A DNA stretch of 42,260 bases from Thermoplasmata archaeon (GCA_034667685.1 JAXDQU010000101.1:1-42260); one strand, 5' to 3'. Counted from the first letter of the stretch, positions 7,307-10,656 are shown. Notes: a model not told the origin generated them from the sequence alone. A program made the numbers and translations.

Positions 7307-7357
7307 CCCGTCGATTTTCGACGCCCGCCGATGGACCCGACCGTTTCACCCGGCACC

Positions 7358-7362
7358 TATAA
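7358..7362 (+). promoter_or_regulatory. TATA box of the HMG-CoA synthase operon
   Basis: TATAA at -30 to -26 relative to ATG 7388. Confidence 0.55.
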
Positions 7363-7387
7363 GGCGGGAACTTGCCTAGCGCGGCGC

Positions 7388-8452
7388 ATGCCGGAGCCGG
7401 TTGTGGGGATCGTCAGCTACGGCGCTTCGATCCCCCGCTACCGCATCCGCAGCGAGGAGATCGCGCGGGTGTGGGGCGAGGACCCCGAGTCGATCAAGAA
7501 GGGGCTGGGCGTCTTCGAGAAGAGCGTCCCCGCGCCCGACCAGGACACGACGACGCTCTCCGTCGACGCCGCGCGCCAGGCCCTCGTCCGCGGCCGCGTG
7601 GACGCGACGACCATCGGCGCGATCTACGTCGGCTCCGAGTCGCACGTCTACGCCGTGAAGCCGACCGCCACCATCGTCAGCGAGGCCATCGACTGCGACC
7701 CGCACATGACGGCGGCGGACTTCGAGTTCGCCTGCAAGGCGGGCACCGCGGCGATCCAGGCGAGCATGGGGCTCGTGAAGAGCGGCTACATCCGCAACGC
7801 GCTCGCCATCGGCGCGGACACGAGCCAGGGCGCCCCGGGCGACGCGCTCGAGTACAGCGCCAGCGCGGGCGCGGCGGCCTTCGTCATCGGCTCGAAGGAC
7901 GTCGTCGCGCGCCTCGACCACACGACCTCCTACACCACCGACACGCCCGACTTCTGGCGCCGCGAAGGCCAGCGCTACCCGACGCACGGGGGCCGCTTCA
8001 CCGGCGAGCCGGCGTACTTCCGCCACGTGCGCGAGGCGAGCGAGTCGCTCTTCCGCCAGGCGGGCACGAGCGCGAAGGACTACCGCTACGCCGTGGTCCA
8101 CCAGCCCAACGGCAAGTTCCCGGTGCGCATCTGCGAGAAGATGGGGTTCACCTCCGAGCAGTACAAGACCGGCCTGCTCACGCCGATGATCGGCAACACG
8201 TACAGCGGCTCCTCGGTGATCGGCCTCGCGGCGATCCTGGACGAGGCCGCGCCGGGCGACCGCATCTTCCTGTGCGCGTACGGCAGCGGCGCGGGCGCCG
8301 ACGCCTTTGACATCACCGTCACCGACGCCATCACGCGGCTCGACCGCGCCGGCACGCCCAGCGTGCAGGACCTCGTGGCCGACAAGGAGTACGTCGACTA
8401 CGCGACGTACGCGAAGTACCGTGGGAAAATCCAGAAAGGGGCTTCCGCTTGA
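7388..8452 (+). CDS. Hydroxymethylglutaryl-CoA synthase, archaeal type
   Basis: GSES (Glu), [10 protein letters not shown] (Cys), HQPNGKFP (His), [21 protein letters not shown]. Confidence 0.95.
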
Positions 8453-8850
8453 CCGAGTTCACTCCCGACGTTCCCTTCCCCGCGTCCAAGAAGGGCGCGC
8501 CCAAGATCGAGACCGTGGACGCGCCGCTCTCCAAGGGGGAGTTCTTCGCCGCGGGCCGCGCCCACGTGGACGCCCGCCGCGAGCACCTCGCCCGCATGGG
8601 CATGGACGCGCGCCACGTCGACGCGCTGCGCATGCCCGCCGCCGAGGCGCCCCGCGCGCCGCCCGTGCACGCGGACGCGCTCCCCGAGCCGAACAACGCC
8701 ACCGGCGTCCGCAAGCGCCCCGCGCTGGCCGGCGTGGACTTCGGGATCGGCGGCGAGAGCGACGACGACCCGCAGGTCGGCGGAGCGGCCGGCCGGCGAT
8801 ACCGAGCGGCCGACGCGGTCGGCCAGATCGACGTCGGTGACCGGCAGTGA
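8449..8850 (+). CDS. Hypothetical 133-aa protein inserted between HMG-CoA synthase and thiolase
   Basis: TTGA overlap with the synthase stop and GTGA overlap with the thiolase start; strong GC3 codon bias. Confidence 0.7.
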
Positions 8851-10028
8851 GCGCGAAGAAGCGCGGCGTCACGGTGCTCGGCGCGGGCGTCACGAAGTTC
8901 GGAGAGCTCTGGGAGGACAGCTTCCGCGCGCTCATCGGCCAGGCGGGCCTCGCGGCCGTGAAGGACGCGGGCATCGCGGGCGAGGACATCGACTGCCTCT
9001 ACGTGGGCAGCATGTCCGCGGGCCGCTTCATCGGGCAGGAGCACGTGGGCGCGCTCGTCGTGGACGAGGCGGGCCTCGCGGACCACCGCATCCCGGCGAC
9101 GCGCGTCGAGGCCGCGGACGCCTCGGGCGCCGCCGCGCTGCGCATGGGCTACCTGGCGATCCTCTCGGGCGAGGCCGACGTGGTCGTGGTGGGCGGCGTC
9201 GAGAAGATGACCGACGTCATGGACCAGGAGCAGACCAACACGCTCGCCGCCGCGCTCGACCAGGAATGGGAGGCGTTCTACGGCGCGACTTACCCGGGCC
9301 TGCACGCCATCATGGCGCGCGAGCACATGGCGCGCTACGGCACGACGCGCGAGATGATGGCCGCGGTCGCGGTGAAGAACCACGAGCACGGGGCGCTCAA
9401 CAAGAAGGCCGCGTATCCGTTCGCGATCACGCAGGACCAGGTGCTCCGCAGCCCCATGGTCGCCGAGCCGCTGCGCATGCTCGACTGCGCGGCCAACGTC
9501 GACGGCGCCGCCGCGGTCGTGCTGGCCAGCGAGGAGTTCGCGCAGAGCGCCAGCGCCAAGCCGGTGCGCGTGCTCGCGAGCGCGCAGGCCTCCGACCGCT
9601 TCGCGCTGGCGGACCGGGCTGACATCACGAGCTTCGCCGCGACGCGCGCCGCCGCCGAGCAGGCGTACGCGAAGGCGGGCCTCACCGCGCGCGACGTGGA
9701 CGTCGCGGAGGTGCACGACGCCTTCACCATCGCCGAGATCATGGCGCTGGAGGACCTCGGCTTCTTCGAGAAGGGCGCCGGCGGCAAGGCGGCCGCCAAC
9801 GGCCTCACCGCGCTCCAGGGCGAGATGCCCGTCAACACGAGCGGCGGCCTCAAGGCGCGCGGCCACCCGCCCGGCGCCACCGGCCTCGCGCAGGTCGCCG
9901 AGATCGTCGCGCAGCTCCGCGGCGCGGCCGGCGAGCGCCAGGTGCGCGGCGCCGAGATCGGGCTCGCGCACAACGTGGGCGGCTCCGGCGCGACCGCCGT
10001 GGTCTCGATATTCGGGAGGATGGGTTGA
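8847..10028 (+). CDS. Archaeal acetoacetyl-CoA thiolase-like protein (SCP2-type) with non-canonical active site
   Basis: TKFGE, VGGVEKM, AVKNH, DGAAA, EVHDAFT, SGGLKARGHP, HNVGG; CxS motif reads EAADASG. Confidence 0.92.
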   Translation: MSAKKRGVTVLGAGVTKFGELWEDSFRALIGQAGLAAVKDAGIAGEDIDCLYVGSMSAGRFIGQEHVGALVVDEAGLADHRIPATRVEAADASGAAALRMGYLAILSGEADVVVVGGVEKMTDVMDQEQTNTLAAALDQEWEAFYGATYPGLHAIMAREHMARYGTTREMMAAVAVKNHEHGALNKKAAYPFAITQDQVLRSPMVAEPLRMLDCAANVDGAAAVVLASEEFAQSASAKPVRVLASAQASDRFALADRADITSFAATRAAAEQAYAKAGLTARDVDVAEVHDAFTIAEIMALEDLGFFEKGAGGKAAANGLTALQGEMPVNTSGGLKARGHPPGATGLAQVAEIVAQLRGAAGERQVRGAEIGLAHNVGGSGATAVVSIFGRMG

Positions 10029-10035
10029 GATGCCG

Positions 10036-10242
10036 TCCTTCGGCTCCGCCGGCTCCCGCATGCGACGACGCGACGACCGCGACGCGCGCGATGGGAATCT
10101 TGTGACCCCAGCGAGGACCCGAAAACCCGAAAACCGGGCGGGAATCTGCGTTCGGGTCCCGATCCACGCAATCGAGTCTCTCGTCGTCGCGAACGCCGCG
10201 CTCGTCGCGCCGTCCCATGCGGAGCGCGCCAGCCACGGAGGA
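10036..10242 (+). other. Structured (long hairpin) insert between thiolase and DUF35; also an open 72-codon frame at 10030-10248
   Basis: Stem 10057-10084/10194-10221 (24/28 pairs); inner stem 10115-10123/10151-10159; TCCTTC pairs with the GGAGGA SD. Confidence 0.6.
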
Positions 10243-10251
10243 ATCTGAGCC

Positions 10252-10656
10252 ATGCAGACGCCGAGATTCTGGCGCGAGATCGACGAGCGCTACGCGATGA
10301 AGGGCGTCAAGTGCGGCAACTGCGGGAGCATCCTCTTCCCGAGCCGCACGCTCTGCCCCAAGTGCCGACACGCCAGCTACGGCAAGCTCACGCCGTTCAA
10401 GCTCTCGGGGCGCGGCGTCGTCGAGCAGAGCACCGTCGTGCACACGCCGCCCGCCGGCTTCGAGCTGCAAGCGCCCTACCTGCTCGCGCTCGTGCGGCTG
10501 GAGGAAGGCCCGCGCGTCACGGCGCAGATCGTGGACGCCAAGCCCGATGCGGTCCCGGTCGGGACGCGCGTGCACGCCGTGTTCCGCCGCATCAACGAAG
10601 AGGGGGAGAGCGGCGTGATCCAGTACGGGTACAAGTTCGTGCCCGACCGAACCTAG
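10252..10656 (+). CDS. DUF35 Zn-ribbon/OB-fold protein (thiolase/HMGCS scaffold)
   Basis: CGNC...CPKC Zn ribbon; PY..ALV.LEEGP, FRRI...G.I.YGYKF; GGAGG SD. Confidence 0.93.
   Translation: MQTPRFWREIDERYAMKGVKCGNCGSILFPSRTLCPKCRHASYGKLTPFKLSGRGVVEQSTVVHTPPAGFELQAPYLLALVRLEEGPRVTAQIVDAKPDAVPVGTRVHAVFRRINEEGESGVIQYGYKFVPDRT

Follow-up and report, generated by a model that had tools for sequence, protein, structure and literature searches.

What does a thiolase contribute to a multienzyme complex once the cysteine that accepts the acyl group is gone? The question is raised by an operon in a 42,260-nucleotide stretch of DNA from a Thermoplasmata archaeon (GCA_034667685.1 JAXDQU010000101.1:1-42260; hereafter the window, meaning this stretch at its full length). 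The operon encodes 3-hydroxy-3-methylglutaryl-coenzyme A (HMG-CoA) synthase (HMGCS), an archaeal-type thiolase and a DUF35 protein, and the thiolase has an aspartate in place of its nucleophile cysteine. A preliminary description of this DNA, made from the sequence alone, had proposed that mevalonate entry here uses different chemistry, or that the thiolase is a scaffold and acetoacetyl-CoA comes from elsewhere. We observe directly that the cysteine is replaced, that both this replacement and the operon around it are conserved, that the HMGCS and DUF35 partners are intact and that other cysteine thiolases are present. From these observations we suggest with a probability of about 0.7 that the protein is a conserved pseudo-thiolase, kept as a non-catalytic structural partner of HMGCS.

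Asp91 occupies the position of the nucleophile cysteine

The gene and the active-site positions that matter here are:

8847..10028, + strand: thiolase, archaeal-type (SCP2-like) subunit without the nucleophile Cys, 393 residues (Pfam Thiolase_N and Thiolase_C_1)
9117..9119, + strand: thiolase codon 91, GAC (Asp), at the position of the nucleophile Cys (codon read directly; phmmer alignment to 6ESQ_A)
9714..9725, + strand: HDAF motif, residues 290-293, with His290 kept and Ala at the x of HDxF (sequence and alignment)
9861..9869, + strand: GHP motif with His340 kept (codon 9864-9866) and Arg338 before it (sequence and alignment)

The thiolase gene starts with GTG and its frame is open over the full length. 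The protein scores 518.8 bits against NF004720 (cut-off 420) and 511 bits against NF053570, the acetyl-CoA acetyltransferase family of the Methanothermococcus thermolithotrophicus type, which is under the cut-off of 600. It aligns over residues 6-388 with the solved thiolase chain 6ESQ_A (phmmer, 349 bits, E 2.3e-103). The alignment ('trveaadasg' over 'trveaacasg') pairs Asp91 directly with the residue that is the nucleophile Cys in the solved archaeal enzyme (6ESQ/6ET9), and the Asp codon, GAC, is two base changes away from TGC or TGT. Thus, the substitution at the nucleophile motif, the two base changes, the HDAF motif, the two histidines and the otherwise intact gene are all as the preliminary description had them.

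The same description had also counted the Cys of an HDCF motif as a second lost catalytic residue, and here the premise is weak. The archaeal motif is written HDxF in section 10 of PMC12960953, where the His is the essential residue and the H284A substitution abolishes HMG-CoA formation; this His is kept in the window protein. The solved chain 7YVY carries HDAF together with CASG, and therefore HDAF alone is not a loss, in line with the earlier remark that HDAF by itself is not rare. His375 and Asn376 are also kept, together with His290 and His340, in the order to which the window belongs, and the last Cys position of classical thiolases is an Asn in the window thiolase (HNVGG).

HMGCS and DUF35 are intact

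The two partners of the thiolase are encoded on the same strand:

7331..8452, + strand: HMGCS, archaeal type (NF003274 552 bits, cut-off 244; 6ESQ_I 477.7 bits)
10252..10656, + strand: DUF35 protein (zinc ribbon and oligonucleotide/oligosaccharide-binding (OB) fold), scaffold subunit of the complex (PF01796 73.5 bits; PF12172 26.1 bits; 6ESQ_E 135 bits)

As described previously, HMGCS keeps its catalytic Glu, Cys and His: the motifs GSESH, FACKAG, HQPNG and GNTYSG, in which the Glu, Cys, His and Asn lie, match 6ESQ_I letter for letter, and the numbering of E82 and C114 was compared with the mutant that section 10 of PMC12960953 names. This HMGCS is the only copy in the genome. The DUF35 protein likewise has all four Cys that had been assigned to zinc binding.

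The loss of the cysteine is widespread among relatives

Among the 120 best database homologues of the thiolase, the nucleophile column holds Asp in 51, Cys in 62 and Gly in seven, and the best 48 all have Asp. For typing of the operon we used 40 relatives in Thermoplasmatota and the genome of the window itself, 41 genomes in total. The best locus could be read in 30 genomes (Asp 25, Cys 4, Gly 1) and five further operons added two Cys, two Gly and one Glu, so that the 35 typed HMGCS-linked thiolases comprise 25 with Asp, three with Gly, one with Glu and six with Cys. Every member typed in the sample drawn from the window's genus, family, order and class has Asp. Conservation of Asp among syntenic thiolases of the lineage, which had been proposed as a check on the substitution, is thereby established. 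HMGCS, thiolase and DUF35 follow one another in this order in 28 of 30 related loci, and contig ends cut through the remaining two. In the 30 complete operons FACKAG and the four Cys of DUF35 are invariant (30/30 each) and the other three HMGCS motifs are found in 28/30 each.

To these we added 80 further loci from named public genomes, in which the nucleophile column holds Gly (39), Cys (25), Ser (8), Asp (7) or Ala (1); these proportions are not frequencies, because the patterns used to fetch the loci contained KARG, which favours the non-Cys type. Judged by record title, Gly occurs in Methanomassiliicoccales and Methanomethylophilaceae, Ser in metagenome-assembled genomes of marine group II/III, and the Cys type in Methanoperedens, Micrarchaeota and Altiarchaeota.

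Some side observations concern these loci. The one lineage with Glu (L065, G023) combines it with HDNF and GQP, and the Ser-type loci labelled marine group II/III (L094-L114) have HDNF, GHA and ENHGG. Moreover, the archaeal thiolase is present in records titled Proteobacteria bacterium, Bacteroides ovatus, Dialister hominis and Chromatiaceae bacterium (L075, L122, L127 and L138). HMGCS and DUF35 adjoin it in three of these four records, the Chromatiaceae locus being too short to show neighbours, and the L075 thiolase is 89% identical to that of the window; the bins behind the four records are probably mislabelled or contaminated.

Evolution of the site and of the remaining active site

A quick IQ-TREE analysis of 89 sequences, thinned to <85% identity and with the nucleophile column removed, places the window thiolase in an Asp clade of 17 rows with an SH-aLRT (Shimodaira-Hasegawa-like approximate likelihood ratio test) support of 97. 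This tree requires three changes between Cys and non-Cys and 11 changes between residue states, including a switch from Gly to Asp inside a Gly clade. The backbones of this tree and of an earlier FastTree tree, which agrees with it in outline, are unresolved, and the three changes between Cys and non-Cys represent a minimum. At the nucleophile position Cys is encoded by TGC/TGT, Gly by GGN, Asp by GAC/GAT (22 GAC and 10 GAT in the related loci) and Glu by GAG. Because of these codons, Gly would be a one-step intermediate between Cys and Asp.

The other active-site residues were counted in 115 loci that include a few duplicates (the 112 of at least 370 residues gave 107 distinct sequences). His290 is kept in 32/32 Asp-type loci. 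His340 is kept in 28/32 Asp forms, 10/42 Gly forms and 30/31 Cys forms, and Ser215 in 1/32, 4/42 and 29/31, respectively. Some Asp-type families have lost His340 (f16, with GFP in place of GHP) or Asn376 (f6). Position 338 is Arg in 74/74 Asp-type sequences and Lys in 63/66 Cys-type sequences; the consistent differences from the Cys form to the Asp form include, besides K338R, Q189A, R192F, S215A, P216A and G126D.

These patterns bear on the possibility that the Asp thiolase still condenses, with Asp91 either taking the acetyl group as a mixed anhydride or acting as a base, and that the complex channels the resulting acetoacetyl-CoA. CoA-transferases, in which Glu or Asp forms a mixed anhydride, offer a comparison for such a catalytic Asp. 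Sister lineages, however, manage with Gly, Ala, Ser or Glu at this position, most Gly forms also lack His340, and the Asp-type families without His340 or Asn376 have the same Asp.

The median ratio of thiolase distance to HMGCS distance is 1.33 for non-Cys pairs (n=271) compared with 1.13 for Cys pairs (n=15), suggesting that selection on the non-Cys thiolases is only slightly relaxed. This result also speaks to the trivial explanation that Asp91 reflects an error of sequencing or assembly, or a gene in decay. The contigs of two public runs (X1 and X2) span 9117-9119 with 0 differences and thus reproduce the codon; both may be the source of the window DNA and are for that reason not independent support. 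In the contigs of an independent sample (X3), 9056-9145 lies outside the listed pieces, leaving codon 91 uncovered, and the contigs of an RNA run (X12) are short and 88-95% alike to the window. Nevertheless, two base changes separate codon 91 from Cys, Asp is found in 51 independent database homologues and in 25 genomes, the frame is open and the distance ratio is modest. We found no point in favour of error or decay; conservation across assemblies refutes it, and we regard its probability as next to negligible. Likewise, a change private to this genome and accompanied by decay, which the preliminary description had named as a refutation, is at odds with the fixation of Asp across the clade and the slight degree of relaxation.

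Other sources of acetoacetyl-CoA

The genome from which the window derives (G000; 99% complete, 124 contigs) has three thiolase/DUF35 pairs, of which the two outside the window keep CAS and HDCF, and two classical thiolases identified by Pfam searches on contigs C118 and C124. The latter have all the canonical Cys, Asn, His and Cys motifs of classical thiolase II, which we take to be numbered Cys89, Asn316, His348 and Cys378. The window thiolase fails this Cys-His-Cys pattern, with Asp at the first and Asn at the last catalytic position. A second Cys-type thiolase, which the preliminary description had recommended looking for, is thus present in the form of two classical enzymes and two Cys-type thiolase/DUF35 pairs. 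That one archaeal genome may hold several such pairs has been noted in a preprint (10.1101/2024.07.05.601840).

Searches with the window protein miss classical thiolases and searches with PF00108 and PF02803 find them. G027, a candidate for a genome with the Asp thiolase as its sole thiolase, was rejected on this ground, as the PF00108/PF02803 searches showed classical thiolases in it. A classical thiolase with the nucleophile Cys (match of at least 175 bits) is present in 29/29 genomes with a non-Cys operon, with the proviso that the copy in G026 is cut by a contig end and the alignment in G011 stops before the last Cys. Every Asp-type genome typed is among those with such an enzyme, which is a further point against a catalytic Asp91.

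In a wider test of 301 Thermoplasmatota genomes at least 90% complete, a classical thiolase was found at E <= 1e-40 in 258, a tally that includes the unpublished genome G311, and not in 43. Of these 43 genomes, 39 carry a Cys-type thiolase adjoining HMGCS and two a Gly-type thiolase (G293 and G300); in G041 and G129, also among the 43, the operon thiolase gave no match at E <= 1e-90.

A separate observation concerns one of the Cys-type thiolase paralogues on contig C124 (L002). The DUF35 protein beside it (2675-3553 of L002, 292 residues) has the zinc ribbon and OB fold at residues 169-272 only, preceded by an N-terminal extension of ~165 residues that has no Pfam match. This recalls the fused HMGS-DUF35 proteins in passages of PMC12960953, but the extension is much shorter.

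Probably a pseudo-thiolase and structural partner of HMGCS

Taking these data together, we suggest that the thiolase inherited as a subunit of the archaeal thiolase/HMGCS/DUF35 complex lost its acyl-accepting Cys and, hence, would have lost thiolase chemistry. Purifying selection would keep the resulting pseudo-thiolase because HMGCS may still depend on it, alongside DUF35, for structural support. According to section 9 of PMC12960953, DUF35 connects thiolase and HMGCS in the solved archaeal complex, and the CoA-binding chamber arises where these two enzymes meet. HMGCS would then still need the subunit after the chemistry had been lost. We predict that the three window proteins still form the complex and that the thiolase subunit in it is inactive. 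Acetoacetyl-CoA for HMGCS would then come from the free classical (bacterial-type) Cys-His-Cys thiolases or, alternatively, from the two Cys-type thiolase/DUF35 paralogues. Of the two proposals made at the outset, a scaffold with acetoacetyl-CoA from elsewhere is thus favoured by the four other Cys thiolases, by the classical Cys thiolases of 29/29 non-Cys genomes and by sister lineages in which the gene keeps its place in the operon although the residue, and in most Gly forms also His340, has changed, whereas the proposal of different chemistry did not find support.

In this pseudo-thiolase, Asp would have no catalytic part and would simply fill the structure where the former Cys-bearing helix begins, as would Gly, Ser and Glu in sister lineages. 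The nucleophile of thiolases sits at the first turn of a helix, and Asp, Gly and Ser (with rare Glu and Ala) are mostly residues favoured at the first turn, as helix N-caps. The spectrum of residues at the dead position would fit a structural role, and judged from the homologues the residue at this position is interchangeable across the phylum.

Several observations weigh against a purely structural role. Asp is found in 74/74 Asp-type sequences, which is by itself the definition of the group; yet the clade reaches down to about 55% identity, and such strict conservation exceeds what a neutral filler needs. The sites that have moved to new conserved states fit a new constraint as well as a plug. 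His290, His340, His375 and Asn376, intact in the order of the window, are most of the old active site. The presence of a classical thiolase is not specific to the loss of Cys, because it is also found in 4/6 Cys-type genomes, and the related genomes are not independent observations. Finally, in G293 and G300, two genomes of one genus (96% complete, with a Gly-type operon thiolase; loci L217, L218, L220, L221 and L226), we found no Thiolase_N match besides the operon copy and no KAS III-like match besides HMGCS. G293 retains part of the surroundings that the classical thiolase has in the closed relative G219, namely the FtsY-peptidase neighbourhood, and no thiolase was found in the 1.5 kb beyond it, which is all that the locus holds; the other gene that flanks the G219 thiolase was found neither in G293 nor in G300. 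The absence of another thiolase may reflect assembly gaps or real exceptions. If it is real, the complex or another route must supply acetoacetyl-CoA in these organisms.

Strict conservation within the clade, retention of the four residues and near-normal purifying selection also speak for a catalytic Asp91, and the two Gly-type genomes for the notion that a complex without Cys may suffice somewhere. Set against these points are the interchangeability of the residue in sister lineages and the co-occurrence with classical thiolases described above; moreover, literature searches gave no Asp-nucleophile enzyme with the thiolase fold. On balance we consider a condensing Asp thiolase unlikely. Because G293 and G300 were found without another thiolase and because Asp is so strictly conserved, we also leave room for a self-sufficient complex that lacks the Cys and makes HMG-CoA from acetyl-CoA alone, either via an anhydride on Asp91 or by some other split of labour across the CoA chamber, and we rate this as quite unlikely.

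Relation to known systems

The closest characterised relative is the M. thermolithotrophicus thiolase (6ESQ/6ET9), with which the window thiolase shares full-length homology, the same three-gene neighbourhood and the His of HDxF and of GHx. The two differ in that the window protein has Asp for the nucleophile Cys and Ala for the Cys at the x of HDxF. Compared with Cys-type relatives it also has Ala at the conserved Ser215, and its score against the equivalog NF053570 falls short.

The loss of the Cys in an HMGCS-linked thiolase is already in print, in a supplement only. Section 3 of the supplement of Hoshino & Gaucher 2018 (PMC6107057) notes that some HMGS-syntenic AACT homologues of Thermoplasmata, Crenarchaeota and Chloroflexi are without the Cys-His motif, and names AACT paralogues and thiolase II as possible substitutes, with a call for biochemical characterisation. 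We are evidently dealing with the same phenomenon in the same taxon: the window thiolase is HMGS-syntenic and without the Cys, and both kinds of compensating enzyme are present in its genome, as two Cys-type paralogues and two classical thiolases. The passages of the supplement on these proteins give no residue identities, no extent in the phylum and no rationale for a scaffold, and as far as these passages and our literature searches go such thiolases were never characterised; searches for Asp-type or pseudo-thiolases beside HMGCS gave nothing beyond this supplement. The present analysis adds which residues replace the nucleophile and how far they extend through the phylum, how the replacement is linked to classical thiolases, with two exceptions, and in what pattern the other catalytic residues have eroded.

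Bacterial complexes provide a parallel. According to passages of PMC12960953, PhlACB, MucABC and the Pseudomonas fluorescens ACAT/HMGS-DUF35 system have the same tripartite make-up, and in them, too, one thiolase-fold subunit is disarmed yet retained. They are, however, the mirror image of the present case: there the HMGS is the subunit deprived of its Glu-Cys-His-Asn tetrad, beside an ACAT that still has the Cys, whereas in the window HMGS is intact and the Cys of the ACAT is lost.

A different comparison had been drawn in the preliminary description, which pointed to Ltp2-type aldolases. The steroid side-chain aldolases Ltp2 and Sal (PMC12329534) resemble the window protein in that their thiolase fold lacks the nucleophile Cys, which is Gly in Sal, and works with a DUF35 partner, but their catalytic Tyr (YDxF/YDCY) corresponds to the His of HDAF in the window, their DUF35 belongs to a hydratase, and they have no link to HMGCS. 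Because Tyr stands where the window protein has His, an aldolase of the Ltp2/Sal type is unlikely and the analogy did not hold up. More generally, the subunit may have taken on another reaction in the complex, for example as an aldolase, as a decarboxylase or in acyl transfer, in the manner of Ltp2/Sal or PhlC/MucB. Repeated repurposing of thiolase/DUF35 folds is described in both papers (PMC12960953, PMC12329534), and the several sites that have settled into new conserved states speak for such a change. However, the Tyr is missing here; PhlC and MucB, according to the first of these sources, still have the Cys next to a dead HMGS, while the window HMGS is intact and the only copy of the genome, and the operon context is unchanged across the phylum. 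A new reaction therefore seems to us rather improbable.

Implications

If the thiolase is indeed a structural subunit, then many of the typed Thermoplasmatota lineages, which by record labels include Methanomassiliicoccales and relatives of marine group II/III, would have given up the channelled archaeal thiolase as the first enzyme of membrane-lipid synthesis in favour of a free thiolase of the bacterial type, the ancestral enzyme serving only as a structural subunit. Nature would then offer, in this protein, a clear case of a pseudoenzyme that persists because of its partner, in mirror image to PhlACB/MucABC. Conversely, if the self-sufficient complex without the Cys were real, much of Thermoplasmatota would start isoprenoid lipid synthesis with a cysteine-free thiolase chemistry. 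In either case caution is needed in annotation: genes of this kind should not be called acetyl-CoA acetyltransferase, and some sources label homologues as acetyl-CoA C-acetyltransferase.

Additional features of the operon

The HMGCS open reading frame (ORF) as listed opens at 7331; translation may really begin with Met at residue 20 (about 7388), because homology to 6ESQ_I begins at residue 25. The 394-bp space that separates HMGCS from the thiolase is occupied by one further ORF:

8449..8850, + strand: small ORF of 133 residues between HMGCS and the thiolase (4-nt overlap with each neighbour)

This ORF has no Pfam or NCBIfam match, and its five database homologues besides the window's own protein (91-104 residues) are confined to the genus. 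Among the related loci, a counterpart of the insert is absent from operons of other families. In comparison with G003, a genome of the same genus, mismatches at the three codon positions are 24/107, 20/109 and 40/108, a mild excess at the third position. The ORF may encode a genus-specific small operon protein or may be a spacer.

On the other side of the thiolase, a gap of 223 bp (10029-10251) separates it from the DUF35 gene, while these genes come close to touching in the majority of related loci. The heptamer GGAATCT occurs three times within this gap.

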